A stretch of DNA of 64,000 nt from Thermoanaerobaculia bacterium (GCA_044226625.1 JBGAGQ010000018.1:1-64000); one strand, 5' to 3'. Shown: positions 1,760 to 60,824, counted from the first letter of the stretch. The notes: generated by a model not told the origin, from the letters alone. Translations and numbers: made by a program.

Positions 1760-3043
1760 TCAGGCTCGATCGAGCTCGAAGACCAGGACGGTCTCGCCGA
1801 TCACGATGCGGTCGAAGGGACGGAGCAGGGCGGACGAGGCGGCCTGGCCGTTGACGCGTGTGCCGTAGCTGCTGCCGAGGTCGGTGAGCCGGTAGCCCTC
1901 CTCCGTCCACTCGATGCGAAGGTGCTCCTTGCTCGCGTTGACCTCGGCGAGCGAGAGCGTGGAGGAGCGCGAGCGCCCGACCGTCACCGGCTCGGCGCCG
2001 AAGGAGATCGATTTGCCGCGGTCCGCGCCGTCGGCGACGAAGAGGCGGGCCGGGGGAGGCCCGGTCGGTTCCTCCGATTCGATGCGGCGGGCGCGCGGCG
2101 CGAGATGGAGCGTGCGTTGCGGATAGGGGATCTCGATCCCTTCGCGCTTCAGGTCCTCCCAGATGCGATAGCGCAGATCGCTCTGGATGCGCGGAGCCTG
2201 GGCTACGTCGTCGACGAAGGTGCGCACCTCGTAGAGGATCGCCGAGTCGGCGAACTCGAGCAGATAGATCTCGGGCGCCGGATTTTCAAGCACGCCGCGC
2301 GTCGCGCGGGACGCCTCAAGGAGCGTTCTCCGCACGCGATAGGGCGGGGCGTCGTAGTGGGCGCCGACCACCGTCCGCACCATGTGCATGGTGTGGGGGT
2401 AGTAGAAGTTGAGGATCCGCTCGTCCGCCATCTTGATGTTCGGCACCACGATGTCGTCGTTGTTGCGGGTCCGGAGATGGGTGGTCCGCCAGTTGATCGC
2501 GACGACCCGACCCTCGTCGGTGCCGACCTTGATCCAGTCGTTGATCCGATACGGACGCTCGGCGCTGATCACCAGCCCGGCAAAGAAGTTGCCGAGGATC
2601 GGCTGGAGCGCGAGACCGAGGACCAGCGACGTGACCGCGCTCGTCGCGAGGAGCGGCGCGATGTCGAGCTTGGGGAACGTGATGCGCAGGGTGATCAACG
2701 CCGCGATCACATAGACCAGCAGCATCGTCACGGCTGGCAACATGTTCGGCAGCCGCAGCCCGCGCCGCGCGGGGAGGTGAACGTCGAAGAGATAAAGGCC
2801 GAGCAGCCGCAGCACGATCGCGATCAGCAGGAAAGCGAGCAGCCAGTTGCGCAGCGAGGCGGCGACCGGCGCGGCTTTGGAATCGACCCAGAGATACGAC
2901 TGAAGGGCGACGACGCCCGCCGCGACGATCAGCGGAAAGGAGACTTGGCGGACGAAGAAGGATTTGCGCGAGGCCGCGGCGATACCCACCACCAGGAGCG
3001 CGAAGAGAGCGACGCCGCCGAAGAGCGCGAGGAAGGGAAGCAT
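1760..3043 (-). CDS. MscS-family mechanosensitive channel fused to a C-terminal FHA domain
   Basis: N-terminal TM helices, GLALQPILGNFFAG, PYRINDWI, GIEIPYPQR (MscS); then VGR..S..H..DLGSSYGTRVNG..IVIG (FHA). Confidence 0.9.
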   Translation of the reverse strand: MLPFLALFGGVALFALLVVGIAAASRKSFFVRQVSFPLIVAAGVVALQSYLWVDSKAAPVAASLRNWLLAFLLIAIVLRLLGLYLFDVHLPARRGLRLPNMLPAVTMLLVYVIAALITLRITFPKLDIAPLLATSAVTSLVLGLALQPILGNFFAGLVISAERPYRINDWIKVGTDEGRVVAINWRTTHLRTRNNDDIVVPNIKMADERILNFYYPHTMHMVRTVVGAHYDAPPYRVRRTLLEASRATRGVLENPAPEIYLLEFADSAILYEVRTFVDDVAQAPRIQSDLRYRIWEDLKREGIEIPYPQRTLHLAPRARRIESEEPTGPPPARLFVADGADRGKSISFGAEPVTVGRSRSSTLSLAEVNASKEHLRIEWTEEGYRLTDLGSSYGTRVNGQAASSALLRPFDRIVIGETVLVFELDRA

Positions 3044-22002: not shown

Positions 22003-22006
22003 GGGG

Positions 22007-22606
22007 CTATTTTCGAACGTCCAAAGCGAGGTTCAACTCGAGAACGTTGACCCGCGGCTCGCCGAGCAGGCCGAAGGTACGCCCCTCGGTGTGAGCGGCG
22101 ACGATCCGGCGGACCTCGTCCTCGGAGAGTCCGCGCTCGCGCGCGACGCGCGGCAGCTGGAATTCCGCGGCCGCCGGGGTGATGTGCGGGTCCAGCCCGG
22201 AGGCCGACGCGGTGACGAGATCGACGGGCACCGCGCGATCGGCGGCGCCGTTTTCGGCTCGCGCCGCCGCGACCGCCGGGACGATCCTCTCCTCGATCAG
22301 CTTTCTGCTCGTCGGCCCGAAATTGGTGCCGGCCGAGGAGGTTCCGTCGTAACCCGCGCCCGCGGCGGACAGCCGGGAGCGGAAGTAGCCGGGCCCCGTG
22401 AAGGGTTGGCCGATCAGGCGCGAGCCGATCACCGCACCCCGTGCGTCGCGAATCAGGCTTCCCTCGGCCTGGTTCGGAAACAGCAGGCGGGCGAGGCCGG
22501 TGACGACCATGGGGTAGGCGAAACCGAGAATCGCGGTGAGCACGAGCGTCATCCGGATCGCCGGACCGAGATGCTTCCACCAGGAGGTCGAAAGGTTCTC
22601 GTTCAC
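22007..22606 (-). CDS. kdpC: K+-transporting ATPase subunit C
   Basis: [42 protein letters not shown]. Confidence 0.95.
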
Positions 22607-22616
22607 GTGAGGCTCC

Positions 22617-24755
<2,139 letters not shown>

Positions 24756-24777
24756 ATCGATCTCGGGCTCTCTTCGG

Positions 24778-26568
<1,791 letters not shown>

Positions 26569-30465: not shown

Positions 30466-31104
30466 ATGTTGACGCTCTACTTCCTGCGCCACGGTCAGAC
30501 GGAATTCTCGCGCGACGACACCTTTTGTGGCTCCGGTCTCGATCCCGGGCTCACCCCCGAGGGGCGGGCGATGGCCGCGGCGTTCGCGGGCGATTACGGC
30601 TCGATGCCGTGGGCGGGCATCTACGCGAGCCCGCTCCGCCGGACGATCGAAACCGCGCGCGCCCTCTGTGGCGCATGGAGGGCCGGCCTCGAGGTGCGCG
30701 ACGGTCTCAAGGAGATCGGCTACGGCGCTTGGGAGGGGAGGACCCGCGCGGAGGTCGAGCGCGACCACCACGACGACTACATCCGCTGGGAGGCCGACCC
30801 CGCTTGGAACCCCCCGACCGGCGGCGAGCGGGGGATCGTCATCGCCCGCCGGGTGGCCGAGGTGATCGAGGAGATCAAAGAGCGCCACCAGGACGGGCCC
30901 GTCCTCGTCGTCTCGCACAAGGCGACGATCCGGATCGCCCTGTGCGGTCTGCTCGGAATCGACGTGGGGCGATTCCGCTATCGCCTCGCCTGCCCGGTGG
31001 GCAGCGTCTCGATCGTCGAGTTCGGCAACAACGGTCCGCTGCTGCGGTCGCTCGCTGACCGTGCGCATCTGCCCGCGGACCTTCGGGCGCTGCCGGGAAC
31101 CTGA
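30466..31104 (+). CDS. Histidine phosphatase (phosphoglycerate mutase-like)
   Basis: LRHGQT, SPLRR, EIGYGAWEG, VVSH; start at ATG 30466. Confidence 0.9.
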   Translation: MLTLYFLRHGQTEFSRDDTFCGSGLDPGLTPEGRAMAAAFAGDYGSMPWAGIYASPLRRTIETARALCGAWRAGLEVRDGLKEIGYGAWEGRTRAEVERDHHDDYIRWEADPAWNPPTGGERGIVIARRVAEVIEEIKERHQDGPVLVVSHKATIRIALCGLLGIDVGRFRYRLACPVGSVSIVEFGNNGPLLRSLADRAHLPADLRALPGT

Positions 31105-31162
31105 CCTTGCTACACTCGGATTCCGCAGCGTCCTGATCCGCTCACCCGCCCCGGAGGTCTCG

Positions 31163-32497
31163 ATGTCGAACGACCCGAACACCCAGCGCCTCGCCCTGAT
31201 CGTCGACGACGAGCCGGGGATCTTGACCACCCTTTCCGGCATCCTCGCCGACCGGGGGTACGGCACGCTCTGCACCGCGTCCGGGAACGAGGCGATCGAC
31301 CTTTATCGGGGGCATCGCCCGGACGTCGTCTTCCTCGACATCTGGCTTCCCGATCGCGACGGCCTCGAAACGCTCCAGGCTTTGCGCGCGGACGACCCCG
31401 CCGCGGCGGTGATCATGATGTCGGGGCATGGGACGACGGCGACGGCGGTCAAGGCGATCAAGATGGGGGCCTACGACTATCTCGAGAAGCCGCTGTCGCT
31501 CCGCCGCGTGGTCGAGGCGGCCGAGGGGGCGATCGACCAGAAGCTGGCGCTTGGATTCCGGGGGACGAACGGCGAAGGCGGTGAGAGCGGGGCGACCCAC
31601 GCGGCCACGGGTCCGGATCTAGAGCGCCAGATCGCGCCGCCCCCTCCTCTTTCCCTGCTCGCGCCGTCCGGCCGGCGCCAGCGGACGATCCGCCATTCGA
31701 CGGTGATCTACGGCCTGGGCCTGCACTCGGGCGCGCGCACGGGCATGGTGATCCAGCCTCTCCCGCCCGACAGCGGCATCCATTTCTACACCCTGCCCGG
31801 GGGCCAGATGATTCCGGCTCACGTCTCGCAAGTGGCCGACACCGACTACGCCACGACGATCGGTCGCGATGGCGACAGCGTCCGCACGGTCGAGCATTTT
31901 CTGTCCGCCCTGCACGCGGCGGGGATCTCGAACCTGTTGATCAAGCTCCACGGCGAGATTCCGGTGCTCGACGGCTCGTCGGTCGAGTTTTGCCGGCTGC
32001 TCCGAGAGATCGGCGTCGAAGAGCAGGACGAGGAGCAGCAGGAGCTGGTGATCGACCGCGTCTACGAAGTGGGGAGCGGAGAAAAGAAGCTCACGCTCGA
32101 GCCGTTCGACGGCTTTTCGGCCTCGTACCGCCTGCGTTACCCGGCACCCGTAGGCGAGCAGGAGCACGAGTTCGTGCTCACGAGCTTCGAGGTTTACGAG
32201 CGCGAGATCGCCCCGGCTCGGACCTTCGGTTTCATGAAGGACCTCAAGATGATGGCCGAGCTCGGGCTCGGATCGGGCGGCCGGCTCGACAACTTCATCC
32301 TGGTCGGCGAGGACGACGTGCTGAACACGGAGCTCCGCTTCCCCGACGAGTTCGCCCGCCACAAGATTCTCGACATCGTCGGCGATCTCTACCTGCTGGG
32401 CTATCCCATTCGCGGCAAGGCCACCGCGAGCCTCACCGGCCATCGCGACAACATCGCGATGCTCAAGCAGATCTGGGCCGAGGCCGGGGCGTCGTAA
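31163..32497 (+). CDS. lpxC: Receiver domain fused to UDP-3-O-acyl-GlcNAc deacetylase LpxC
   Basis: REC: IVDDE, LDIWLP, MSGHG, EKP; LpxC: QRTI..GLGLHSG, TVEHFLSAL, EIPVLDGSS, ARTFGF, RHKILDIVGDL, GH; SD GGAGG. Confidence 0.92.
   Translation: MSNDPNTQRLALIVDDEPGILTTLSGILADRGYGTLCTASGNEAIDLYRGHRPDVVFLDIWLPDRDGLETLQALRADDPAAAVIMMSGHGTTATAVKAIKMGAYDYLEKPLSLRRVVEAAEGAIDQKLALGFRGTNGEGGESGATHAATGPDLERQIAPPPPLSLLAPSGRRQRTIRHSTVIYGLGLHSGARTGMVIQPLPPDSGIHFYTLPGGQMIPAHVSQVADTDYATTIGRDGDSVRTVEHFLSALHAAGISNLLIKLHGEIPVLDGSSVEFCRLLREIGVEEQDEEQQELVIDRVYEVGSGEKKLTLEPFDGFSASYRLRYPAPVGEQEHEFVLTSFEVYEREIAPARTFGFMKDLKMMAELGLGSGGRLDNFILVGEDDVLNTELRFPDEFARHKILDIVGDLYLLGYPIRGKATASLTGHRDNIAMLKQIWAEAGAS

Positions 32498-42606: not shown

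Positions 42607-42614
<8 letters not shown>
41241..42614 (+). CDS. DUF58 (vWA-like) protein
   Basis: [37 protein letters not shown]; start uncertain (41220-41241). Confidence 0.88.
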
Positions 42615-45363
<2,749 letters not shown>

Positions 45364-45372
45364 GGGCGGACA

Positions 45373-46917
45373 CTACGCGCCACGCCGTGTTGGGAGCAAA
45401 CGGAATTCGATCCCGCGCATCCTCCGCACCAGGGAAAGGGCCAAAGCGAAACCCGAGGCCGCGAGCGCGCCCAAGAGGAGGGTTCCCGCCATCGAGGGCC
45501 TCTCTGCCGAGATCAGCGCTCCCCGCCAGGCATCGACCGCGGCCGACAGCGGATTCCAGCGCGCGATCGTCGCGAGCCAGGCGGGCATCGCCCGATGGGG
45601 GACGAGGGCGGTGCTGGTGAAGAAGAGAGGCATGTTCACCAGGTGGACGAAGGTCGCCATCCCTTCTTGGGAGCGGGTGAGGAAGGCGAGGATCGAGGAG
45701 AGCGCGGCGAAGGCGACGGCGAATAGGGCGAGGTCGAGGAGGGCGACAGCGCACGCCGTGGGAGCCCAAAGGAGGCGGGCGCCGAGGAGGAGTCCAAGCA
45801 CCAGGACGACGACTGCCTGGACCAGGAGCCGTCCAACGTCGGCCCCGATCTTGCCGGCGAGGAGGGGAACGGGTCCCGCCGGTGCGGCGAGGAGGCGGGC
45901 CAGGAATCCCGTCTGCAGGTCGCGAATCCAGCCGATGCCTGACTGGGAGGCGCCGAACAGGAGGGTCATCGCGCTCACGCCTGGCGCGAGGTAATCGAGG
46001 TACGAGACGCGCCCGGTGGGATCGATCTCCACCCGCCCGAAGCGATGGAACAGGAAGCCGAAGAAGAGCATCCAGATGAGGGGTTGGCCGAGCGAGAAGG
46101 TGAGCAGAACGGGCCGGCGAAGGGCGCTGCGGAGGGTGCGGCCGGCGACAGCCCGCGCGGCGCCGAGTCTCGAAGGAGCCGGGCTGGGTGTGCGGGCATC
46201 GGGTGTCCCCCTGGAGGCGCCGCCGGTGAAGGCTTCAGCCATCCGGCCCGCCTCGAGGCGCACGATCCGATCCGCCCCTTCCGCCGCCGCGCGATCGTGG
46301 GTGGCGATCACCACGGCGGCGCCTTTCGCCGCTCGCCGATCGATCTCCTTCCGGAGCGTTGCCACCCCTTCGTCGTCGAGCCCCGCCGTCGGCTCGTCGA
46401 GCAGGAGGAGCGCGGGCTCGTGGATCATCCCCGCCGCGAGATGGAGCCGGCGCTTTTGTCCACCCGACCAGGTGGAGACGGGACGGTCGAGTGGCTTGGC
46501 GATACCGAACGCCTCGGCGAGCTCCCGGATCCCTTCGGCGAGACCGCGGCGGGGTATGCCGTGGAGCGCAGCCAGGAGGCCCAGCGTCTCGCGGCCCGTC
46601 ATCTCGGGATCCAGCGCAACTTGCTGAGGCACGAACGAGACTTCACGGCGAAGGATCTTTCGTTCGCGCCGGTCTGCCTGCGCCGGCTCGTCGATCCCGA
46701 GCACGTTCACAGCGCCGCGGCTTGGGGCGATCTCTCCGGCGAGCAGGTGCAATAGCGTGCTCTTGCCCGCGCCGTTCGGCCCGAGGAGGGCCGTGACGGA
46801 GCCGCGAGGCAGATCGAGGTCGATCGCGTCGAGTGCGGCGGTCGAGCCGAAATCTTTTCTCGCGCCGCGGAGCGAGACGGCCGGTCCAAGCTCGGCCGCT
46901 TCGCCGTCAGTCGGCAT
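45373..46917 (-). CDS. ABC exporter with the ATPase fused to an ABC-2 permease
   Basis: GPNGAGKST, WSGGQ, LLLLDEPT, ATHD, Pro-rich linker, then QPLIWMLFFG, YLDYLAPG, NMPLFFTS, MPAWL..NPLS. Confidence 0.88.
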   Translation of the reverse strand: MPTDGEAAELGPAVSLRGARKDFGSTAALDAIDLDLPRGSVTALLGPNGAGKSTLLHLLAGEIAPSRGAVNVLGIDEPAQADRRERKILRREVSFVPQQVALDPEMTGRETLGLLAALHGIPRRGLAEGIRELAEAFGIAKPLDRPVSTWSGGQKRRLHLAAGMIHEPALLLLDEPTAGLDDEGVATLRKEIDRRAAKGAAVVIATHDRAAAEGADRIVRLEAGRMAEAFTGGASRGTPDARTPSPAPSRLGAARAVAGRTLRSALRRPVLLTFSLGQPLIWMLFFGFLFHRFGRVEIDPTGRVSYLDYLAPGVSAMTLLFGASQSGIGWIRDLQTGFLARLLAAPAGPVPLLAGKIGADVGRLLVQAVVVLVLGLLLGARLLWAPTACAVALLDLALFAVAFAALSSILAFLTRSQEGMATFVHLVNMPLFFTSTALVPHRAMPAWLATIARWNPLSAAVDAWRGALISAERPSMAGTLLLGALAASGFALALSLVRRMRGIEFRLLPTRRGA

Positions 46918-47746
46918 GGACGATCGTGCCGACGTGCTCGCCTTCCAGCGCTCGGGCGAGCCGATCGGGATGCCGACCGTTGACGATCTGGAAGCTTTTC
47001 ACCAGCCGCGCCCGGGAGAGCAGGTCGAGCAGCACCTCGTCGAACGGTAGCGTCGCAAGGCCCAGAGAGCGCAGCTCGCCCACCCCGATCCGAGGGATGA
47101 ACCGGGCGCCGGAATGGATCTTCGGATCGGCGTCGTACAGGCCGTCGACGTCCTTGACCAGGATCACGCTCTTGCAGCCGAAGCACTCGGCCACCAGGTA
47201 GGAGCCGGCGTCGGTCCGATGCGGCGGGATGCGGCCGATTTCCGGCGGATGCTCCCAGATCGAATAGGGGGGATCGCCGTTGAAGATCACACCCGGCGCG
47301 GAGTGTAGGAAAAGCGGCAACAGGTGGCCGAACATCTCCGGCGGGATCGCCACCACGCCGAGCGGCGCGAGCAAGGTCCCCAGGATGTGGGCGTTGCCGA
47401 GCGCGTCGGCGATCGCGAGCTGGGCGAGGACGCCGGTCGGCAGCCCGAGGTCCATGCCGATCGAAAAGACGTGGCGGGAGCGCACGCCGCCTCCGGTCGA
47501 GAGGATCAGCTTGCGTTCGCGAAGCACCTCGGCGAGCACTTCCACCAGCCCCGGGAGAGCCTCGGCCCCGTGGTCGACGATCGATCGCCCGCCGATCTTC
47601 ACCACGTGGGCGTGGGGGAGCATCCGGACGAGCGGCGCCTTGCGCTCGGTGCCGGCGACCAGGTCCTTGTCGATCAGGCTTTCGCGCATCAGCATCGAGG
47701 TCAGGTGATGCCGGGCGTCTTCGGAGGGCTGGGTTTCCTCGGTCAT
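46907..47746 (-). CDS. mosA: Molybdenum storage protein alpha-like subunit (amino-acid-kinase fold)
   Basis: HLTSMLMRESL.DKDL, VVKIGG, GVRSRHVFSIGMDLGLP, RIPPHRTD, EHVGT resemble Azotobacter MoSto alpha from recall. Confidence 0.75.
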   Translation of the reverse strand: MTEETQPSEDARHHLTSMLMRESLIDKDLVAGTERKAPLVRMLPHAHVVKIGGRSIVDHGAEALPGLVEVLAEVLRERKLILSTGGGVRSRHVFSIGMDLGLPTGVLAQLAIADALGNAHILGTLLAPLGVVAIPPEMFGHLLPLFLHSAPGVIFNGDPPYSIWEHPPEIGRIPPHRTDAGSYLVAECFGCKSVILVKDVDGLYDADPKIHSGARFIPRIGVGELRSLGLATLPFDEVLLDLLSRARLVKSFQIVNGRHPDRLARALEGEHVGTIVHAD

Positions 47747-47762
47747 GTCGCGCGCCTCTTTC

Positions 47763-48587
47763 TCAATCGACCGAAATCAGGGTGCCGACGTCTTCGCCTT
47801 CGAGGGCACGGGTGAGGTTGCCGGGCACCAGGCCGTTGATCACCCGGATCGAGGTGCGATGGACGGCGCGCTCCATGAGGTCGAGCACCGCGCGCTCGAC
47901 CACGAGGTCACCCAAGTCCATGGCCTTCAATTCCGACACGGTGATCTTCGGGATGAATTTCGCGTTGCGGTCTTTCTTGGGATCGGCGGTGTAGAGGCCG
48001 TCCTCGTCCTTCACGTAGATCATCGAGCGGGTGCCGAAGACCTCCGAGACGAGATAGGCGCCGGTGTCGGTCCGGTGTGGCGGGATGCGTCCGATCGCCG
48101 GGTTCTGCTGCCAGAAGGTGTAGGGGGGCATGCCGAAGAAGACCGCGGCACGCCGCTCGGCGAGAAACAGCGGCAGCTGGGGAAACTGCGCGGGCTCTAT
48201 GAACGGGATGCCGTGCCGGGCGAGCAGGTAGTGGATCATCCGCGCGTTCTGCATGCTGACGAACGTGCCGAGAACGCTCATCACGCCGGTCGGCAGGCCG
48301 AGGTCGAGGGCGACGCTGTAGGCATGGCGGGCACGCGTGCCGGCGCCAGTGCCGAGGATCATCCGATGGCGCGGAAGGTTCTCCACCACCTCGTCGAGGA
48401 TCGGAAAGACCGCGGCGCGTCCGCGGTCGATCATGCTCTGGCCGCCGATCTTCACCACGTTCGCCTCGGGCAGGATGCGCTCGACCGGACCGACCGTCTG
48501 GCGCATCAGATCGCGATCGGAAAGCGACCCCGCGACGAGGTTCTTCCCCAACTCGGTGAGCAGGTCTCCGGCGAGCGCTTCGGTCAT
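47763..48587 (-). CDS. mosB: Molybdenum storage protein beta-like subunit (amino-acid-kinase fold)
   Basis: RILP.ANVVKIGGQS.IDRGRAAV.P, GTGAGTRARH.YS, GMPPY..W, VKDEDGLYTA, NGLVPGNLTRAL resemble MoSto beta from recall. Confidence 0.8.
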   Translation of the reverse strand: MTEALAGDLLTELGKNLVAGSLSDRDLMRQTVGPVERILPEANVVKIGGQSMIDRGRAAVFPILDEVVENLPRHRMILGTGAGTRARHAYSVALDLGLPTGVMSVLGTFVSMQNARMIHYLLARHGIPFIEPAQFPQLPLFLAERRAAVFFGMPPYTFWQQNPAIGRIPPHRTDTGAYLVSEVFGTRSMIYVKDEDGLYTADPKKDRNAKFIPKITVSELKAMDLGDLVVERAVLDLMERAVHRTSIRVINGLVPGNLTRALEGEDVGTLISVD

Positions 48588-49378
48588 GCCCGGTCTCCGC
48601 GCGGCGGGATCGAAACCCCCGCGATCTCGTAGGTTTCGATCGAAGGGTACCGCACATCGAGCGCGCCGAAGCGCTCTTCCGCGAAAGCTCGCAGCGCGGA
48701 GAGCACCTCGCGTTGAAGCTGCGGCGTGACGTCATGCCCGCCGAGTCCGGTCTTGCCCGCCCAGGCGTCGAGAAGCGCCGCCGGTCGTTCCTCGGTCTCC
48801 CACCGGGCGACCACGACCGCCGGCAGCTCCGTCGTATTCGGAACATGCGCAACAAGAGCTTCCAGCACCGCGCGATGCCCTTTCCTGCCGCCGCGTGCGG
48901 GCAATCCTCGGGCGGCGAGAAGGACCTCGAGCTCGCGGCGCAGGGTCGTGCGGACGCTCTCTTGCGGACGCTCGACGCGGCCGATCGCGAACCGGCCTCC
49001 GGACGGCGAGGCGAGCCGCGCCACTTCGCCGGCGAGGTTGTGCAGGTCGAGCCGGTGCGCCGCGCGGGAGGCGAAGATCAGCTGCGCCGCATCACCGCGC
49101 AACGGCCACGGACGGGACGCGTCGGCGGCGACGCGCGGCGCGCGTGACCGGCGCCCGAATCGGGCGAGCATCCCGGTCGACAGATCGAGTCCGACATAGC
49201 GGGCGCCGTCGGAAACGAGAGCGGCGCCGACTTGTCCGGTGCCGCAGCCGATCTCGACGATCCGCCCTCCCTCGGCGAGCCGTTCGAGATGGCGACCGAT
49301 TGCGACGACCGCCGCGTCGGGCAAGCCGGCGCGGCGGTCGAACTCGGCGGCCTGTTCGTCGAAGGCCGCTCGGCTCAA
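48584..49378 (-). CDS. Class I SAM-dependent methyltransferase
   Basis: AFDEQA..FD, VEIGCGTG, GLDLS..ML, ADA; TTG 49378 overlaps the oxidase stop, own stop overlaps the mosB ATG. Confidence 0.8.
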   Translation of the reverse strand: MSRAAFDEQAAEFDRRAGLPDAAVVAIGRHLERLAEGGRIVEIGCGTGQVGAALVSDGARYVGLDLSTGMLARFGRRSRAPRVAADASRPWPLRGDAAQLIFASRAAHRLDLHNLAGEVARLASPSGGRFAIGRVERPQESVRTTLRRELEVLLAARGLPARGGRKGHRAVLEALVAHVPNTTELPAVVVARWETEERPAALLDAWAGKTGLGGHDVTPQLQREVLSALRAFAEERFGALDVRYPSIETYEIAGVSIPPRGDRA

Positions 49379-51636
49379 TGGGAGTGGTCCATACCGCTCA
49401 TTCCTCCGGCCGAGGCACCCGGGACGTACGGCGGACAGGGGGGGAACGGCGTGGTAGCCGACGGCGTGCCGCATTCGTCCGCCATGCCGTTCGTCTGCGT
49501 CTTGCCGTATTTCCACGCCTTGGGGTCGGCGCCGCCAGGGGGGCAGACCGCCTGGACGTTCTGCATCATTCCGCGGTCTTCATGGCCGAGGAAATGGCAG
49601 TGCAGCACGTAGCCGCCGGTGTAGTCCTCAAATCGCTGGAGGATCTCGATCGACTTGACCGCCGCCCCCTGGCAGCAGCCGCAGACCGACTGTTGGCCGG
49701 GGACGGTCGTCCGCCACTGGCCGTTCCAGCTAAACGCCGGGCCTCCCTGCGTAGGGATCGCGGCGCACACCCCAGGGCACACCTGCTCGGCCTGGGACTG
49801 GCCGGAGATCGGACCGGCGTTCGCGTCTTGGCACGTGACGTTCGGCAGGGCGACGGTGTCCCACCAGATGTAGGGGGGCTTGAACGTCGTGGTGTCGTTC
49901 CGCGTCAGCTGGAACGGGTTGGTATGGATGTGGAACGGATGGTTCGGCGCCGAGTCGTTGGTGATCGTCCACCGCTCGCCGGTGCCGAGGGTCATGGTCT
50001 GGTTCGCGCACGACTGGTTGTACTTCAGCTTGTCGATCCAGAAGCCGTTCGGCTGGGTGCCCGGCTTCGTGTCGATCCCCGTCGCGGGGTCGGTCATCGA
50101 GAAGGCGAGCGTCCGATCGCGCACGACCGAGGAGATGTCGGACAGATACGGCGGCATGGCGGGCCATGTCGTGGGCAGCGTCATCGCCGGGACGATCGGG
50201 TTCTTGTCGGTGAGGTCGATCGAGAAGAGCGAGGGATTCGACTGCGCTACGGCGGCGCCGCGCAAGCGCTGCGCGGAGCGGAGGTCGAGCTGGTCGCGCA
50301 GGTCGGACACTACGTTGCCGAAGACGGCAAACGTCACCTCGCGCATGCCCGGCGCCGCTTCCTTCGGCGAGGCCGGCGCCTGGACCAGGAAGTCGGCGCG
50401 GTTGCCAGGAGCGATGCTGAAGGTCTGGCCGGGGCCGAGCAGCGGCTGGCTCGCGTAATTTTCGGGCGCGAACTGGACGCCGTCCTGGGCGATCTGCCGG
50501 ACCACGAAGTCGTCGGGAAAGTCCACCGTGACCTCGGCGGAGGCCTGCATCGTGGCGTTGATGAAGCGCAGGCGTTTCACCTCACCGTAGCGGAAGGTGA
50601 TCTTCGGGTCGGCCTGGCCGTTGACCAGCGGCTGCGGCGGATAGTTCGGATGCGGGCGGTGGAAGAAGTTGAGCTCCGGCCACTGCTGCTGGACGTCCAT
50701 CAGCTTCTCGAACGTCTCGACCGCCGCGGGATCGTTGCCGTTCACCTTGTAGTAGTTCCAAAGCCAGTCGTCGAGCTCCCCTTCGATCAGCAGAGAGCCG
50801 GAGAGGCCGTTCAAAACCTGGAGCGCCGTGGCGCCGTGCTTGTGCGGGTGGTACCAATGGGTGCCCGGCGGCTGGTTCCAAGGAAACGGGTCGAGCTCGG
50901 TCTGGTAGGTGCCGATCGCCACGGTTTCGCTCACCGGCGGCGGGGGAGGATTGGTCTGGAGCGACGAGTAGAGGGCCACCAACGGAAAGTCGTGGTGCGG
51001 CTGCGGCGAGACGTGCGTGCCGTGGTAGTGAATGTTGGTGACGTCGGGGCCGTGGAAGCAGTCGGGCTCCTTCTGGGGGATTTTGACGCCGCTGGTCGAT
51101 CCGGGGGTCGGCGGCTGCTGGACCTCGGCCGGGTCGCACTTATGGTACGGGTAGTTGTTGTTCGGCAGTCGGTTCGCGAGCAGCAGCCGGAAGCGGGTGC
51201 CGGGGACGGCGACCGGGTTGGTTTTCGGATCGTACGGCTTGCTTGGCTCTTTGAGCTTCGCCTTCCGTACCCGATAGGTCGGCCCCGGGCTGGTCCAGAG
51301 GAGGGTCGGATCCTTCGGATTGTTGCCGTTCAGCGGCGAGCCGTAGGTGCGCAACGACATCTGCCGATACTCCCAATGTGGATTGGGGATCGTCTTACCC
51401 GCGGCGTCCTGAGAAACCCAGAGCGGCACGCAGTAGGCCGTCCTCTGTTCGACGGTCAAGCTGGTGTCGATCAGGCCCGTCGGCAGCGGCCGGATCACCC
51501 GGGGCTGGATGAGCTCCTGGTTGTAGACCGGCTGAGGGCAGACGGGGGGCTGCCCGATGGCCGGGGTGGCGACCGTGGCGAGCGCGAAGACGAAGAGTAA
51601 GAGGGCGAACAGGGGCGGGCGGAAGCGTTCGACCAT
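49375..51636 (-). CDS. Secreted multicopper oxidase with an inserted MVL-type lectin domain
   Basis: Signal peptide; TNIHYHG, WYHPHKHG, HPFHIH, HCHFLGHEDRGMM; insert AGPI..AEQVCPGVC..WNGQWRTTVPG..SVCGC; Met/His tail MSGMDHSH. Confidence 0.88.
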   Translation of the reverse strand: MVERFRPPLFALLLFVFALATVATPAIGQPPVCPQPVYNQELIQPRVIRPLPTGLIDTSLTVEQRTAYCVPLWVSQDAAGKTIPNPHWEYRQMSLRTYGSPLNGNNPKDPTLLWTSPGPTYRVRKAKLKEPSKPYDPKTNPVAVPGTRFRLLLANRLPNNNYPYHKCDPAEVQQPPTPGSTSGVKIPQKEPDCFHGPDVTNIHYHGTHVSPQPHHDFPLVALYSSLQTNPPPPPVSETVAIGTYQTELDPFPWNQPPGTHWYHPHKHGATALQVLNGLSGSLLIEGELDDWLWNYYKVNGNDPAAVETFEKLMDVQQQWPELNFFHRPHPNYPPQPLVNGQADPKITFRYGEVKRLRFINATMQASAEVTVDFPDDFVVRQIAQDGVQFAPENYASQPLLGPGQTFSIAPGNRADFLVQAPASPKEAAPGMREVTFAVFGNVVSDLRDQLDLRSAQRLRGAAVAQSNPSLFSIDLTDKNPIVPAMTLPTTWPAMPPYLSDISSVVRDRTLAFSMTDPATGIDTKPGTQPNGFWIDKLKYNQSCANQTMTLGTGERWTITNDSAPNHPFHIHTNPFQLTRNDTTTFKPPYIWWDTVALPNVTCQDANAGPISGQSQAEQVCPGVCAAIPTQGGPAFSWNGQWRTTVPGQQSVCGCCQGAAVKSIEILQRFEDYTGGYVLHCHFLGHEDRGMMQNVQAVCPPGGADPKAWKYGKTQTNGMADECGTPSATTPFPPCPPYVPGASAGGMSGMDHSH

Positions 51637-51815
51637 GGTTCGAATCCTCCTTAGACCGCCGTCGACGGAACGAGGGACGAGTCCGTCGGCGAAGGAAAGA
51701 TGGCGTGCGCGAAGGTTTGAGGCTACACCCGGTGGATGTCGCGGTCAAACGACAACTGGAGGATACGAAACGTGCCTTGCCGCGCGATCGGGGCCGGCAT
51801 ACCATCCCGGGCAAA

Positions 51816-53042
51816 ATGAGCGACTCCGAGGAGAGGGGGGAGAGGCGTGGCGATCGCGAGCTGGTGCCGCGCTTGGAGGGACAGGGGTACTCCGCCGAGG
51901 CGCTCGCGAGCCGGCGCGCCTGGGCGCAGGAGAAGACCGGCGCCCGTCTGGGCGCGATAGGCGGCGCGCCCATCGACCCCGAGGAAATGCGGGGCAACAT
52001 CGAGAACCCGATTGGTGAGGCGCGCCTGCCGCTCGGCGTCGCCGGACCTCTCGTCGTGCGCGGCGAGCACGCGGACGGGACGTTTTACGTTCCCCTGGCG
52101 ACGACCGAAGGGACGCTGGTCCGCTCTTACGAGCGCGGGATGGTCGCGATCTCTCGCTCCGGAGGGGCGACGGCGCGGGTGCTCGCCGACGAGAACCGCG
52201 TCTCGCCGATCTTCCGTTTTTCAAACGTCGAGTCGGCCGTGGCGTTCGCCCGTTCGATCCCTGGCCGTTTCGCCGAGATCGCCGAAGCGGCGGAGGCGAC
52301 CACCCGTCACGGCCGGCTGCTCCGGATCGAGCCGATGACGCTCGGCCGCAAGGTGATCCTCCATTTCGTCTACTCTACCGGCGACGCCCACGGCATGAAC
52401 ATGATCGTCCGGGCGACCGAGGCCGCCTGCCGCGAGCTCGTGGAGGAGGCGGACGGGTACGTGCTGTTCAGCGGCGCCGAGTCGGAAAAGCACGCGAGCG
52501 GCTCGTTGCTTGCGGGAGGGAAGGGCAAGCGCGTGACCGCGGGCGCCCTTTTGCCCGCACGGGTGACGCGGGCGTACCTCCACGCGACCCCCGACGAAAT
52601 CGTTGAAGTCTGGCAGCACACGGTGCTCGGGCACCTCCAGGCCGGGGCGATCGGCTACAACGGGCATTTCGCCAATGGCCTGACTTGCCTGTTCATCGCC
52701 TGCGGCCAGGACGTCGCGAACATTGCGAACGCGGCGGTGGGTGTGAGCCACCTCGAGCGGACCAAGACCGGAGATCTGTTTGCGAGCGTCACCCTGCCGT
52801 CGCTCACCGTGGCCACGGTCGGCGGCGGCACCGGCCTCGGCACCGGCCGCGAGTGCCTGGAGATGCTCGGGTGCTACGGTGGAGGGAAGGCGAAAAAGCT
52901 CGCCGAGATTGCCGCCGCGACGGTGCTCGCGGGCGAGCTGTCGATGGCAGGCGCGATCGCGAGCGGCGAGTTCGTTGAGGCGCACGAGACCTACGGCCGG
53001 AACCGGCCAGAAGGGGACACCCCTTCCGCCGAGGCCTCGTGA
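51816..53042 (+). CDS. Class I HMG-CoA reductase-like protein
   Basis: GNIENPIG, PLATTEG, TGDAHGMNM, GQDVA, TVGGGT, GELS, C-terminal His; start likely ATG 51816. Confidence 0.85.
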   Translation: MSDSEERGERRGDRELVPRLEGQGYSAEALASRRAWAQEKTGARLGAIGGAPIDPEEMRGNIENPIGEARLPLGVAGPLVVRGEHADGTFYVPLATTEGTLVRSYERGMVAISRSGGATARVLADENRVSPIFRFSNVESAVAFARSIPGRFAEIAEAAEATTRHGRLLRIEPMTLGRKVILHFVYSTGDAHGMNMIVRATEAACRELVEEADGYVLFSGAESEKHASGSLLAGGKGKRVTAGALLPARVTRAYLHATPDEIVEVWQHTVLGHLQAGAIGYNGHFANGLTCLFIACGQDVANIANAAVGVSHLERTKTGDLFASVTLPSLTVATVGGGTGLGTGRECLEMLGCYGGGKAKKLAEIAAATVLAGELSMAGAIASGEFVEAHETYGRNRPEGDTPSAEAS

Positions 53043-54559
53043 AGCGCCGATTTCGCGGGCTGCGCTCGGTTCCCGACCCCCGGTATGACGCGATCCTGAT
53101 CGGCTCGGGCGTCGGAGGGCTGGTCGCCGGCAACCTACTCGCGCGGGCCGGGCTCAAGGTCCTCCTCGTCGAGCAGCACTACATGGTCGGCGGCTACTGC
53201 AGCACTTTCCGCCGCGGCGGCTACACGTTCGACGCGGCGACCCATTTCTATCCGCTGCTCGGCAACCCGGACACGCTCACCGGCCGGCTCCTCGCCGAGC
53301 TCGGCGTCACGACCGGCTGGGTGAAGATGGACCCGGTCGACACCTTCCACTTTCCCGACGGCTCGCGCTTCGAGGTGCCGGCCGACCTCGAAACGTACAA
53401 GGCCAAGGTCAAGGCCGAGTTCCCCGAGGAAGCCGGCGCCCTCGACGCGTTCTTCCAGGAGGTCAAGGAGGTCTACTTCCTCGGCTTGCTCCATTACTTC
53501 CGCGGCAAGCCGATCGAGCGCGGGGTTGCGCAGATGGAACGGCTGGAGCGCCTTCGCCATCTGACGCTCGGCGAGGTGCTCGCCGCGCGCTTTCGCGACC
53601 GCAAGCTGAGGCTTCTCCTCGCCGCCGACTGCCCCCATTGGGGCTCGCGCCCCGGGCGCACCTCGTTCGTTTTCGACTCGATGCTCCGGCTCTCCTACTT
53701 CCTTGGGAACTACTACCCCAAAGGCGGCTCGCAGGCGTTCGCCGACGAGCTGGCGCTCCGGTTCGAAGAGCAGGGAGGGCACCTGCTCACGAGCGCGATG
53801 GTCGAGCGCATCTACGTCGAAAAGGGCGCCGCTCGTGGCGTCGAACTGGAGCTTCTCCGCGGTCCGGTCAAGGCGCTCTTCCCGCGCGGCCGGATCGAGA
53901 GCGACGTGGTGATCTCGAACGCCGACCTGATCCAGACCTACGAGCGGTTGATCGGCGCCGAGAATCTTCCCGCCGAGGCAATCGCCGAGGTCCGGGCGCT
54001 CCGCCCGACGTTTCCCTGTTGGCTCACGCATCTCGGCCTGGTCGACGTCACGAACGAGGAGCTCGAGCAGGTGCAGGGGTATTACTGGGACGGCTGGGAC
54101 ATGGACCGGGTGGGGATCGACGCGCTCCGATTCAAGTTGTTCGCTCCGACGCTCTACGAGCCGGAGATGGCTCCGCCGGGCGGCCAGGTGCTGATCATCC
54201 AGAAGGTCATGGAGATGGACTACGACCGGATCGACGATTGGCCGAAGCACAAAGCGGAGGTCGAGGCGTTCCTGTTCGACCACCTCGGGCGCCTGATGCC
54301 CGGAATCGAGAAGAAGATCGTCGCGCGCACCAGCGCCTCGGCGAAAACCTCGGCGCGCTTCACCCTGAACACGAGCGGCGCCATGCTCGGCTGGGAAATG
54401 TCCCCGGCCCAGCTCGGCGACGGCCGGCCGACGATCGAGACGCCGATCGACGGCCTCTATTGCGTCGGTCACTGGACCCGCCCGGGCGGCGGGATCACGC
54501 CGGTCATCGTCTCGGCGCAACAGGCAGCGCAGAGGGTGCTCGCGGGGAGAGGGGAGTAG
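53039..54559 (+). CDS. CrtI/RetSat-like FAD-dependent oxidoreductase
   Basis: IGSGVGGL..VEQH..GGYC..GYTFD, YPKGGSQ, ISNAD, TPIDGLYCVGHW..PGGG; GTGA overlap with the HMGR-like gene. Confidence 0.88.
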   Translation: MKRRFRGLRSVPDPRYDAILIGSGVGGLVAGNLLARAGLKVLLVEQHYMVGGYCSTFRRGGYTFDAATHFYPLLGNPDTLTGRLLAELGVTTGWVKMDPVDTFHFPDGSRFEVPADLETYKAKVKAEFPEEAGALDAFFQEVKEVYFLGLLHYFRGKPIERGVAQMERLERLRHLTLGEVLAARFRDRKLRLLLAADCPHWGSRPGRTSFVFDSMLRLSYFLGNYYPKGGSQAFADELALRFEEQGGHLLTSAMVERIYVEKGAARGVELELLRGPVKALFPRGRIESDVVISNADLIQTYERLIGAENLPAEAIAEVRALRPTFPCWLTHLGLVDVTNEELEQVQGYYWDGWDMDRVGIDALRFKLFAPTLYEPEMAPPGGQVLIIQKVMEMDYDRIDDWPKHKAEVEAFLFDHLGRLMPGIEKKIVARTSASAKTSARFTLNTSGAMLGWEMSPAQLGDGRPTIETPIDGLYCVGHWTRPGGGITPVIVSAQQAAQRVLAGRGE

Positions 54560-54630
54560 GCGGGCTCCTAGAGCTCCTTTCTTCCGCCGGTGCTATCGTT
54601 CCTCCCGACGAACCCTGGGAGATCGAACGC

Positions 54631-55557
54631 ATGCCGCGACTCGCTTTGTCGCTCGGAGGAATCGTGCTCGCCGCCGCCTGCGCCACGGCCTCACCGCCGC
54701 TTTCGAAGGCGTCGTCTGGAGGGGCCAAGCCGGCTTCGAGCGTCGCCGCGGCGATCGAGTCGGCGCTCGCCGGCTCCCAAGGGATCACCGCGGTGGCGTT
54801 TTTCGATCTCCAGACGGGGGAGTCTGCCGGACGCCAAGAGCACCTCCGCTTCCACGCCGCGAGCACCATGAAAGTGCCGGTGCTGGTGGAACTGTTCCGG
54901 GAGGTCGACCGGGGGGAGCTGGCCCTCGATCGCCCGGTTCCGGTGAAGAACGAGTTCAAGAGCCTGGTCGACGGCTCGCCGTTCACCCTGGACTCGAAAG
55001 AGGACGGCGATCCCGACTTGTACGCCGCCGTCGGGGAGAGCCGGCCTCTCGGCGAGCTCGCGCGGCGGATGATCCAGCGCAGCTCGAACCTGTCGACCAA
55101 TCTGCTGATCGAGCTGCTGGGCGCGAAACGCGTCACCGCGGAGATGAGGACGCTCGGGGCGCAGGACATCGAAGTCCTCCGGGGAGTCGAAGACGAAAAG
55201 GCGTTCGAGGCCGGCCTGATCAGCTCGACGACCGCCTACGACCTCGCGGTCATCCTGCGCGCGATCGCCGAGAAGAAGGTGGTTTCACCCGCGGCGAGCG
55301 CGACGATGATCGAGATTCTCGAAGGGCAGGAGTTCAAAGAGAAGATCCCGGCGGGCTTGCCGCCCGGCACGCAGGTCGCGAACAAGACCGGCGACATCAC
55401 CGGTGTCCATCACGACGCGGCGATCGTCTTCCCCCCGGGCCGGGCGCCGTACGTGCTCGCGGTGCTCACCGAAGGGTATTCGAGCGAGGAAGAGGCCGAC
55501 GCACGAATCGCCGCGGTATCGAAAGCGGTGTGGCGAGCGCTCTCGCCATCCTCTTGA
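54631..55557 (+). CDS. Class A beta-lactamase-like serine hydrolase, probable lipoprotein
   Basis: Lipobox LAAAC; FHAASTMK (SxxK), SSN, KTG, HDAAIV. Confidence 0.85.
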   Translation: MPRLALSLGGIVLAAACATASPPLSKASSGGAKPASSVAAAIESALAGSQGITAVAFFDLQTGESAGRQEHLRFHAASTMKVPVLVELFREVDRGELALDRPVPVKNEFKSLVDGSPFTLDSKEDGDPDLYAAVGESRPLGELARRMIQRSSNLSTNLLIELLGAKRVTAEMRTLGAQDIEVLRGVEDEKAFEAGLISSTTAYDLAVILRAIAEKKVVSPAASATMIEILEGQEFKEKIPAGLPPGTQVANKTGDITGVHHDAAIVFPPGRAPYVLAVLTEGYSSEEEADARIAAVSKAVWRALSPSS

Positions 55558-58627: not shown

Positions 58628-59944
58628 GTGGTCGCGATCGCCGAATCCCTCGCGCTGCGGAATACTTCCGAATCACACGAGATCGTTTCCTCGCACGATT
58701 CCGACAGGCCTTGGGGGCCCGGCTCTCTGGGCGAGGGCTGCTCCGGGATCGCCCTGTTTTTCGCCTACCTCTCGCGTGCGGCCACCGCGGTCGGCTCGAG
58801 CCCGGAGCGAGCCGCCGAGCATCGGCTCCTGGCCGAGCGATTCGCGGACCAGGGGGCCGACCGGTTGGCCGAGGGTCTGTCGGACCCCTCGCTGTATTGC
58901 GGCTTCACCGGCACGGCCTGGATGATCCGACACCTCGGAACGCTCTGGGGCGATCCGGAGGCGGCGAGCTACACGGAGGAGGTCGATGCCCTTCTCGTCG
59001 CCCTGCTCGGCACGGAAGATTGGACCGCCGAGCTCGATCTGATCACCGGGCTCGCCGGCCTGGGTACCTACGGGCTTCAGGCGATCGCGAGCGGAGGGCC
59101 GGTCGAAGATCTCGTCGCGTCCGTCGTTCGGCACCTCGACCGGAAGGCGGAGGTAAGCGCACACGGGTTCACCTGGTTTACTCCGCCCCGTCTCCTGGAT
59201 CGCGCCTCGCGAGACAACTTCCCGGAGGGGTACTACAACGTGGGCGTCGCGCACGGCGTGCCGGGCATCCTCGCGATCTTGGCCCGCGCCGCGCGGGCGG
59301 GAATCGCCGCGGAGAGGGCGGCGGCTCTCGCGGAGGGCGCTTTCGATTGGCTGATGGGGCAGCGCCTCGGTCCGGAGAGTCCCTCCGTCTTTCCGAGCTT
59401 CGTCCCTCCCGGCGGCTCCCCCTGGCCGTCTCGCCTCGCCTGGTGCTACGGCGACGCGGGCGTCGCCGCGGCTCTCTGGGGGGCGGCCGAGAGTCTCGAC
59501 GAGCCCCGAATGCGCCGCGCCGCGATCGACGTCGGGAGGCGGGCCGCGTCCCGCGATCCGGCTTCGGCATGGGTCCAAGACGGCTGCCTCTGCCATGGTG
59601 CCGCCGGCCTCGCGTTGATCTTCGACCGGCTGTTCAAGGCGACGGGGGAGGAGGTTTTCCGCGACGCCGCCGTCGCCTGGTATCGCCGGCTTTTGGGCCA
59701 GCGATCCGAGAGTGGTGTCCTCGGCGGATTCGGGTCTTGGACGTCGCTCTCGGGAGAAGAAGGTGGGTTTCGGAGAGAAGAGCGACCAGGGCTCCTCACG
59801 GGAGCGGCGGGGATCGGACTCGCCCTCCTCGCGGCGATCTCGAGCGACGCCCCGGATTGGGATCAGGCGCTCCTGATCAGCCCCGAGAGGACGCGTTCGA
59901 GCGACCGCGGTCGGACCGGTCCGGTCGAGAAGGCTGTGCTATAA
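58628..59944 (+). CDS. lanC: LanC lanthionine synthetase (cyclase); true start probably further upstream
   Basis: G..GIALF, LYCGFTG, DLITGLAG, GVAHGVPG, AWCYGDAG, LCHGAAG, GLLTGAAGIGL..WD; Zn ligands and catalytic His present. Confidence 0.92.
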   Translation: MVAIAESLALRNTSESHEIVSSHDSDRPWGPGSLGEGCSGIALFFAYLSRAATAVGSSPERAAEHRLLAERFADQGADRLAEGLSDPSLYCGFTGTAWMIRHLGTLWGDPEAASYTEEVDALLVALLGTEDWTAELDLITGLAGLGTYGLQAIASGGPVEDLVASVVRHLDRKAEVSAHGFTWFTPPRLLDRASRDNFPEGYYNVGVAHGVPGILAILARAARAGIAAERAAALAEGAFDWLMGQRLGPESPSVFPSFVPPGGSPWPSRLAWCYGDAGVAAALWGAAESLDEPRMRRAAIDVGRRAASRDPASAWVQDGCLCHGAAGLALIFDRLFKATGEEVFRDAAVAWYRRLLGQRSESGVLGGFGSWTSLSGEEGGFRREERPGLLTGAAGIGLALLAAISSDAPDWDQALLISPERTRSSDRGRTGPVEKAVL

Positions 59945-59954
59945 ATTCGGCCCC

Positions 59955-60824
59955 GTGATACGCCTTGGTGATCTCGAGCTGACCCTGGTCGGCGATGGAG
60001 AATTCCGCCTCGACGGGGGAGCCATGTTCGGGGTTGTGCCGAAGGTGCTCTGGTCGCAGATGAAGGAGCCGGACGCGGACAACCGGATCCGCATGGCGAC
60101 GAACTGCGTGCTGATCCGTCGGGGGAGCGATCTCCTCTTGATCGATAGCGGGATCGGCGACAAACACAACGCGAAATTCGGCGAGATCTACGCCATGGAG
60201 CCGCACGCCGTTCGGCTGCCAGAGTCGATCCGACGGGCCGGATACGAGCTGTCGGACGTCACCCACGTCGTGCTCTCGCACCTCCACTTCGACCATTGCG
60301 GCTGGAACACCCGGAAAAACCCCGACGGGCGGGTGGTGCCGACCTTTCCCAACGCCCGTTACTTCCTCAACCGGGGCGAGGTCGAGCACGCCCGGAACCC
60401 TTCCGAGCGCGACCGGGCGAGCTACTTTCCCGAGAATTGGGAGCCGCTCTTCGAGGCCGGTCAGGTCGAGCTGTTCGATGACGAGGTGGAGGCGATGCCC
60501 GGGGTGCGCGCGGTCAAAGCGCCGGGGCATAACGCCGACATGTGCATCGTTCTACTGGATGGCGGGGCGGACGCCTCGGGCCGACCCGAGCGCGGCGTCT
60601 TCTGGGCCGATCTGGTTCCGACGGTCGCGCACGTCCCGCTACCTTGGATCATGGGTTACGACCTCTATCCTCTGACCACCCTCGAGAACAAGAAGAAGTG
60701 GCTGCCGCGCGCCGCGGAAGAGGGCTGGCTGTCGATCTTCGAGCACGACGCCGAGTCGCCGCTCGCCCGGATCGCCTCGGATCGTCCGGGGCGCTTCCGC
60801 GTGGAGCCGCTCGCCTCCTCCTGA
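59955..60824 (+). CDS. MBL-fold metallo-hydrolase (YtnP-like)
   Basis: LDGGAMFGVVPK, IDSGIG, SHLHFDHCG, PGH, ADL, WIMGYD, FEHD. Confidence 0.9.
   Translation: MIRLGDLELTLVGDGEFRLDGGAMFGVVPKVLWSQMKEPDADNRIRMATNCVLIRRGSDLLLIDSGIGDKHNAKFGEIYAMEPHAVRLPESIRRAGYELSDVTHVVLSHLHFDHCGWNTRKNPDGRVVPTFPNARYFLNRGEVEHARNPSERDRASYFPENWEPLFEAGQVELFDDEVEAMPGVRAVKAPGHNADMCIVLLDGGADASGRPERGVFWADLVPTVAHVPLPWIMGYDLYPLTTLENKKKWLPRAAEEGWLSIFEHDAESPLARIASDRPGRFRVEPLASS

Follow-up and report, generated by a model that had tools for sequence, protein, structure and literature searches.

Introduction

The question raised by this locus is what a pair of proteins resembling the two subunits of the molybdenum storage protein (MoSto) would do in a bacterium outside the nitrogen fixers. 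The pair, here called MosB1 and MosA2, is encoded in a 64,000-nucleotide stretch of DNA from a Thermoanaerobaculia bacterium (GCA_044226625.1, JBGAGQ010000018.1:1-64000), which is referred to as the window and whose closest public relatives are labelled Thermoanaerobaculia or Acidobacteriota. On its minus strand, the genes for a multicopper oxidase, a methyltransferase (MT), MosB1, MosA2, and a fused ABC exporter lie head to tail as five tightly coupled genes. A preliminary description of the window had proposed either a metal-oxyanion storage and export system in a new context or a MoSto-like kinase cage taken over by a small-molecule or isoprenoid-related pathway. On balance, it seems probable that the pair is part of an accessory and patchily spread cassette for the storage and export of molybdenum or tungsten (Mo/W) oxyanions in many soil bacteria outside the nitrogen fixers. 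The first of the two proposals fits the homology to MoSto, the lack of nifH, and the recurrence of ABC-2 exporter and modA genes near related pairs, all described below. Handling of Mo/W is the best explanation because genes of the molybdate importer modABC adjoin the pair in several phyla and because the homology to MoSto is full-length; the adjacency is the strongest single clue to function.

To our knowledge, work on MoSto has been confined to one organism. It is called 'rather unique ... having no known homologs' in a published account (PMC6448029), and the KEGG entry K00947 'mosAB' was counted in a rhizosphere metagenome (PMC13188454). In the titles and abstracts of the literature on 'molybdenum storage protein', with subscription papers on MoSto structures outside the scope, no treatment of homologues from non-diazotrophs or of the cassette was found.

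Homology of the pair to MoSto

MosB1 matches the Azotobacter chains in the PDB with E values of 3.4e-90 for MosB (residues 11-272) and 3.9e-61 for MosA, and MosA2 with 5.2e-68 for MosB (residues 14-278) and 3.2e-60 for MosA. Both subunits are homologous to MosA/MosB over their whole length, and two different subunits, one alpha and one beta, are encoded side by side. The N-terminal half of MosA2 alone scores 113.3 bits against MosA and 111.8 bits against MosB. The lysine of the KIGG motif is invariant in both subunits (K46 in 49/49 MosB1 orthologues and K50 in 50/50 MosA2 orthologues), and mean column identity is 78% in the beta-like subunit (49 orthologues) and 73% in the alpha-lineage subunit, compared with 45% in the MT (34 orthologues). 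By these alignments, the MosB1/MosA2 pair is a true homologue of MoSto.

The kinase-family motifs kept in both subunits would also suit a small-molecule pathway unrelated to metals, in which a heteromeric enzyme of the amino acid kinase (AA-kinase) fold transfers a phosphate group to an organic acid or phosphate, and the product is methylated by the MT and leaves the cell through the ABC-2 pump. The nearly full-length match to MosB speaks against such a pathway, as do the models of known kinases. The UMP kinase model TIGR02076 (pyrH_arch) gives 59.2 and 71 bits for the two MoSto-like proteins against a cut-off of 158, and the isopentenyl phosphate kinase (IPK) model NF040647 (IPPK_Arch) gives 28.2 bits for both against 120.

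A Rosetta-stone search for longer proteins yielded eight, of which six are single-chain beta-alpha forms, together with a CbiQ fusion; no MT or ABC domain is fused to a MoSto-like domain among the eight. In P0158 and P0279 (database proteins of about 732 aa), the MoSto-like domain lies behind a CbiQ-like membrane domain (ECF transporter T component). P0273-P0278 (501-602 aa) are apparent beta-alpha fusions, each a singleton cluster, so that merges during gene calling are possible; one of them, under the name 'uridylate kinase', comes from an isolate of Bradyrhizobium.

Cluster ligands and lineage of the second subunit

In Azotobacter MoSto, an octamolybdate is covalently bound to His156 and Glu129, and a W3 cluster is held by three symmetry-related histidines (PMC4504029). 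Ligand positions were taken from an alignment to chain 6h6w_A, in which the native number equals the index plus one and position 156 is Ala. The histidine on the three-fold axis that binds the W3 cluster is presumably αHis140. At the positions of αGlu129, αHis140, and αHis156, the MosA2 of the window has Pro135, Phe146, and Ser162. Among its orthologues, the first position is Pro in 50/50, the second is Phe in 47/50 and Leu in 3/50, and the third is Ser in 40/50, Ala in eight, Gln in one, and Asn in one. The Mo-cluster-binding histidines, whose conservation was one of the checks suggested in the preliminary description, are thus replaced in all 50 orthologues. Since the defining ligands were looked for and are not present, the pair is not a MoSto member in the strict sense. 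Only the P0135 type, taken as the representative of the Azotobacter-type alpha, retains E, H, and H at the three positions. The alpha-lineage subunit has invariant histidines at H14, H92, H120, H141, and H166, and in the beta-like subunit Glu131 is invariant and lies in the alignment column of αGlu129.

The preliminary description had noted that the alpha-like copy has a beta-like C-terminal half. The motif on which this was based, FGCK..VKDVDGLY, is present, and the phylogeny offers an explanation for it. In a quick tree of 55 family members, with many open forks, the beta-like clade (99% support) is distinct from the second-subunit clade (100%), and a branch with 96% support has a 'beta supergroup' on one side and, on the other, the second-subunit clade together with P0135 and two further groups. 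A tree constrained to unite the second-subunit clade with P0135 and P0238 was better than the free search by 17.27 lnL units (p-AU 0.952), and these three have a one-residue insertion that is absent from all rows of the 'beta supergroup'. Because of the better constrained tree and the shared insertion, the second subunit can be assigned to the alpha lineage, and the comparison with MosA and MosB suggested earlier thus separates two clades and holds the second subunit with the alpha-type P0135. A PPYHHHE motif together with a three-residue deletion was found only in P0135 among 13 aligned rows, the motif being present also in two shorter representatives (P0255 and P0263). The second subunit looks beta-like because it is the Azotobacter-type alpha that is derived.

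Conserved neighbours of the pair

Relatives of the beta-like protein were collected by scanning one genome per species. The best 80 of 488 loci, 74-96% identical, were used, and neighbours were counted over these 80 by tblastn with the proteins of the window. Antisense shadow open reading frames (ORFs) that our ORF caller gave in GC-rich loci (clusters c6, c7, c9, c17, and c21) were set aside. The two subunits are adjacent in 77/80 loci, the other three stopping at a contig edge. An MT gene immediately precedes the pair in 60 of the 70 loci with at least 900 bases of flank and is nearby in three more, and an ABC-2 permease, split or fused, lies directly downstream in 31 of the 62 loci with at least 2.2 kb. 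Both flanks are covered in 57 loci, of which 28 have MT and exporter, 20 MT only, one exporter only, and eight neither. Since the core of MT and pair is found again in so many of the loci with enough upstream flank, the arrangement is not due to chance.

It could be supposed that the pair is an ordinary MoSto which stores Mo for molybdoenzymes, and that MT, exporter, and oxidase are unrelated neighbours. The high identity to MosB, the eight loci with neither partner, and the Azospirillum loci, which have the beta-then-alpha order without such partners, agree with this explanation. However, it appears unlikely in view of the MT directly upstream in 60/70 loci and translationally coupled in the window, of the single exporter without an MT against 28 with one, and of the complete loss of the three covalent ligands.

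Within 10 kb of the pair, modA was found in 28/80 loci and modA with modB in 27/80. The clustering of other ORFs yielded a binding protein of the periplasmic type, a permease, and an ATPase with a TOBE domain, which in the locus tested as an example (L046) score above the NCBIfam cut-offs for modA, modB, and modC. A genomic link to molybdate handling is thus present, and it speaks against the small-molecule pathway, as does the neighbour clustering, which brought out no conserved core gene of a biosynthetic pathway next to the cassette. Overall, the conserved unit consists of MT, the MosB-like subunit, and the MosA-lineage subunit, joined by an exporter in roughly every second locus and by molybdate importers in roughly every third.

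The remaining genes around the pair are less constant. In 10/80 loci, an oxidase homologue on the same strand immediately precedes the cassette, and the oxidase is therefore a lineage-limited partner; a homologue of the GH63-like gene next to the exporter was found in 2/80 loci, and this gene is not part of the conserved cassette. The HMG-CoA reductase-like (HMGR-like) and CrtI-like genes, which diverge from the run, occur in 3/80 loci, in the closest kin only. Of the co-occurring genes foreseen in the preliminary description, the MT and ABC-2 genes were found again across the loci, and the HMGR-like and CrtI-like genes were not, beyond these three.

Some other pairs deviate from the conserved unit. 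Four loci labelled Gammaproteobacteria or Pseudomonadota (L063, L064, L073, and L083) have a MoSto-like pair without MT or ABC-2 genes; upstream of it, a GT2/GH17 protein and an EamA transporter were found together with a conserved protein of 104 aa that lacks a Pfam match. In two distant MoSto-like pairs, L095 (G196:C99) and L096 (G283:C33), the KIGG lysine of the first subunit is replaced by Ser or Cys. The distant pair of G196 abuts a mod-like set of substrate-binding protein, permease, and ATPase, as well as a silicon-transporter-like protein.

Host genomes and distribution

The genome that contains the window (6.6 Mb in 133 contigs, 97.9% complete) does not appear to be that of a diazotroph: nifH above the cut-off was found in none of eight genomes with MoSto-like pairs, namely this genome, five other carriers of the cassette, and two genomes with distant pairs. 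A setting in which the pair serves nitrogenase is thus not found. On contig C48, the same genome carries modABC together with a modE-like gene and a porin; moaA lies 204 bases downstream of a molybdenum cofactor (Moco) riboswitch on contig C25, and moeA is on contig C93. By these genes, the host is a user of Mo, in keeping with Mo/W handling by the cassette. Another AA_kinase match, on C33, is presumably PyrH.

An isoprenoid role, in which the pair works with the HMGR-like and CrtI-like genes, was part of the second proposal of the preliminary description. These genes are divergent and begin 68 bases from the oxidase start, and IPK shares the AA-kinase fold. Nevertheless, such a role is very improbable, since the two genes are confined to three loci, the IPK model fails on both MoSto-like proteins, and contig C120 of the same genome (L106, G000:C120:99000-118000) holds a full mevalonate cluster of its own. 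This cluster includes an HMGR above the cut-off, mevalonate kinase, a decarboxylase, a squalene/phytoene-synthase-like gene, and two true IPKs in tandem (146 and 139.6 bits, the cut-off being 120), while the HMGR-like protein of the window remains below the NCBIfam cut-off (338.7 vs. 441.8). The HMGR-like/CrtI-like pair beside the cassette is synteny of one lineage, and it may form a separate, uncharacterised unit.

With the second subunit as query, more than 4,549 clusters of proteins (90% identity) were matched at E 1e-20, their source names being 'molybdenum storage protein' or 'uridylate kinase', and at 50% identity 85 representatives pass 1e-30. Carriers are sparse in the groups sampled: 4/301 genomes of the same phylum, the present one included, and 4/400 Gammaproteobacteria (3/399 when the unpublished genome G044 is left out). 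The 80 loci carry 13 phylum labels, which were given by submitters mostly to bins, so that some may be wrong. The identity of 74-96% which the beta-like subunit maintains under these 13 labels indicates strong constraint. Since the phylum labels need 21 changes on the beta tree, where the minimum is 12 and shuffled labels need 44, descent appears to be partly vertical with some mixing.

Methyltransferase, exporter, and oxidase

A profile of 34 MT orthologues matches PDB entry 2yqz (TTHA0223) end to end with E 2.5e-38, while the remaining matches cover only the half that binds S-adenosylmethionine (SAM). G44, G46, and G48 of motif I and the acidic D65 are invariant in the 34 orthologues, as in a class I SAM-dependent enzyme. 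In the Protein Atlas, the MT falls in generic methyltransferase clusters only. Two Acidobacteriota without a cassette MT keep an orthologue elsewhere in the genome (300.9 and 298.2 bits, against 294.1 for the positive control), and no homologue was found at E 1e-15 in two Gammaproteobacteria without a cassette MT, in which an EamA-type transporter precedes the cassette. A search for the methyl acceptor found no column that is conserved together with the MT and changed in both MT-less clades; it is a weak search, with 3 + 4 MT-less rows, from which four rows with the MT merely nearby and six rows with too little flank were excluded.

One of the stray MT genes (L115, G411:C1:2449000-2468000) stands in a run that comprises unknown proteins and two large SCO1/SenC-domain proteins of 946 and 725 aa, and the second locus (L116, G414:C53) has ORFs of similar size. 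No MoSto, ABC, or mod genes were found at these two loci. The SCO1/SenC neighbours in L115 hint at a copper link for the MT family.

The fused exporter contains ABC_tran (PF00005) at residues 29-178 (E 2.3e-31) and ABC2_membrane (PF01061) at residues 255-468 (E 2.3e-30), and thus has the domain set of an ABC-2 exporter, ATPase and permease in one protein. Its best NCBIfam matches are drrA and drrB, both below the cut-offs (176 vs. 312 and 112 vs. 223), and a PDB sequence search with the permease half gave no match. In the oxidase, an MVL (mannan-binding lectin) domain is inserted near the C-terminal cupredoxin domain; the protein has a signal-like hydrophobic stretch at its N-terminus and a Met/His-rich tail at its C-terminus.

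With an MT and an exporter both there, the cassette could confer resistance to a different toxic oxyanion or metalloid, be it tungstate alone, vanadate, arsenate, or tellurite, the cage or kinase capturing it, the MT methylating it, and the ABC-2 pump expelling it. The patchy spread across phyla, the copper-oxidase gene coupled upstream in the window with homologues in 10 loci, and the SCO1/SenC-domain proteins that adjoin an MT orthologue in one scanned genome are consistent with such a function. Arsenite methyltransferases have conserved catalytic cysteines, whereas no invariant or near-invariant Cys exists among the 34 MT orthologues, and the weak match to the ArsM family is far below the cut-off (NF041537, 20.1 bits vs. 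510). Moreover, the recurrent neighbours are modABC importers and not arsenic or tellurium genes, and this kind of resistance is considered quite unlikely. The small-molecule pathway described above gains from the loss of the cluster ligands, from the absence of Moco genes in the loci, and from the MT and exporter as a common biosynthetic pairing; set against the MosB match, the mod genes in 28/80 loci, and the lack of a conserved core gene, it is distinctly unlikely.

Proposed function of the cassette

A possible scheme for Mo/W storage and export can be described as follows. MosB1 and MosA2 would form an (alpha-beta)3 cage, which would take up molybdate or tungstate and use ATP to load the oxyanion. 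Clusters, if formed, would be held non-covalently or by further invariant residues, for instance H141 and H166 of the alpha-lineage subunit or E131 of the beta-like subunit. The exporter would rid the cell of a methylated product or of oxyanion that is in excess or not wanted, tungstate being one example, and the MT would act on the exported substrate or on the cage. As a whole, the horizontally scattered cassette (MT, beta, alpha, often an ABC-2 exporter, and often modABC) would serve Mo/W homeostasis in bacteria that make Moco and do not fix nitrogen.

Several observations weigh against this scheme. None of the three covalent cluster ligands is kept at its position in any of the 50 MosA2 orthologues, and therefore the stored species may differ, or cage chemistry may be absent altogether. 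The 47 ORFs of the window scanned with Pfam, small ORFs being outside the scan, include no nitrogenase, mod, or Moco gene, as the preliminary description had also observed. The moaA and moeA genes of the same genome gave zero matches in the 80 loci at E 1e-10. No Moco riboswitch was found in the window, and those present in 5/40 carrier genomes do not overlap the loci (L007-L086). A simple ModE-box pattern had 0 matches in 1,106,186 bases of the loci. In the one Azospirillum record read (NZ_CP007798.1, L108), the mos genes have neither an MT nor an ABC-2 or mod gene within 8 kb. Finally, we know of no role for an MT or an ABC-2 exporter in Mo handling, and the two together are a typical small-molecule pairing.

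A bolder form of the Mo/W scheme can also be put forward, although as a rather doubtful one. The cassette would be a mobile and complete device for Mo/W homeostasis, composed of a ligand-poor MoSto-like ATPase cage, a dedicated MT, and an ABC-2 pump, the last providing the first bacterial efflux of molybdate, tungstate, or methylated oxyanions; the coupling to copper proteins, namely the multicopper oxidase in the window and the SCO1/SenC-domain proteins next to stray MT genes, may then reflect Mo-Cu antagonism.

Organization of the locus

The window has a G+C content of 68%. The features of the coupled run and its flanks are listed in Table 1. The MT frame is open over 48584-49516, and its coordinates in the table are those of the gene counted from TTG.

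Table 1. Coordinates of the cassette genes and their flanking genes in the window
Feature	Position	Strand	Domain or family evidence
Secreted multicopper oxidase, 753 aa, heads the coupled run	49375..51636	-	Pfam Cu-oxidase_2, MVL, Cu-oxidase_3
Class I SAM-dependent methyltransferase (MT), TTHA0223 type, TTG start	48584..49378	-	Pfam Methyltransf_11/25
MoSto beta-like subunit MosB1, 274 aa	47763..48587	-	Pfam AA_kinase, MosB match
MoSto alpha-lineage subunit MosA2, 279 aa	46907..47746	-	Pfam AA_kinase, MosB/MosA match
Fused ABC ATPase and ABC-2 permease (exporter type), 514 aa	45373..46917	-	ABC_tran + ABC2_membrane
GH63/MGH1-like glycoside hydrolase, 9 bases downstream of the ABC gene	42607..45363	-	Pfam
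HMGR-like gene, divergent from the run	51705-53042	+	Pfam HMG-CoA_red
CrtI-family oxidoreductase gene	53039-54559	+	Pfam Amino_oxidase, NCBIfam crtI_fam

The junctions read from the sequence indicate close coupling. The stop codon of the oxidase is overlapped by the TTG start of the MT (TTGA), and the product counted from this TTG opens M-S-R-A-A-F-D-E-Q-A, in agreement with the orthologue consensus MxxxxFDxQA. The stop of the MT overlaps the start of the MosB-like gene (ATGA), the two MoSto-like genes are 16 bases apart with a purine-rich GAAAGAGG stretch in the spacer, and the ATG of the ABC gene lies inside the preceding MoSto-like gene with an overlap of 11 bases. On the other strand, the HMGR-like and CrtI-like genes overlap by four bases, the latter starting with GTG. 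The coupled run and each of these junctions had been given in the preliminary description, and all details agree with the ORFs, domains, and sequence. Contigs from an RNA library (one run, 97-99% alike) map only to segments of the oxidase gene and of the MT gene; carry-over of DNA is possible, and the missing contig cover over the two MoSto-like genes carries no information.

Elsewhere in the window, several gene arrangements were observed that do not touch the cassette. A MscS-type mechanosensitive channel carries a C-terminal FHA domain (1760-3043, minus strand). A kdpABC operon is followed by a protein in which the KdpD sensor N-domain is joined to PTS EIIA-2, with no histidine kinase (20314-26568, minus strand). 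A response-regulator receiver domain is followed by a fused LpxC (UDP-3-O-acyl-GlcNAc deacetylase) at 31061-32497 (plus strand). A gene resembling those of class A beta-lactamases is located at about 54590-55557, and a LanC-like protein is followed by a protein of the metallo-beta-lactamase fold at 58628-60824 (plus strand).

Comparison with known systems

The MoSto family is large, and its commonest form in this survey is found outside nitrogen fixers, is without the known covalent ligands, and is accompanied by constant gene partners. The cassette bears on whether soil bacteria in general possess Mo/W storage cages, on the polyoxometalate chemistry that is possible in a ligand-poor cage, and on whether molybdate or tungstate can leave bacteria by an efflux route, of which we know none so far.

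Window pair and Azotobacter vinelandii MoSto (PDB 2ogx, 4f6t, 4ndo) have in common the AA-kinase fold, two adjacent paralogous subunits, and the motifs of the nucleotide site. In contrast to the Azotobacter system, the window pair occurs in a host without nifH and has an MT and an ABC-2 exporter alongside, and MosA2 differs from the Azotobacter-type alpha in having neither the PPYHHHE motif, nor the three-residue deletion, nor αGlu129, αHis140, and αHis156. Because the ligands are lost, the MT is a fixed partner, an exporter is present, and the spread is patchy, the cassette differs from an Azotobacter system merely placed in another host.

The mos genes on plasmids of Azospirillum, a diazotroph, have the beta-then-alpha order of the window pair. 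P0135 is 80-84% identical to the genes named 'molybdenum storage protein subunit alpha' on 10 Azospirillum plasmids, and it is in P0135 that the E/H/H motif was read. The beta homologue is annotated as 'uridine kinase' or 'uridine monophosphate kinase' in 10 records in which the alpha is named correctly, a pattern that suggests systematic misannotation.

UMP kinase (PyrH) and isopentenyl phosphate kinase have the Pfam domain PF00696 in common with the pair, which is far below the cut-offs of both families. The exporters of the DrrAB/NodIJ type have an ABC ATPase and a six-helix ABC-2 permease as does the exporter of the window; the latter differs in that it is a single fused chain, below the drrA/drrB cut-offs, with a permease half that has no solved sequence relative. 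Thermus thermophilus TTHA0223 (PDB 2yqz/2yr0), which is not named in the literature searched, is the only structural relative of the MT, and it matches this enzyme over its full length and has no assigned substrate.

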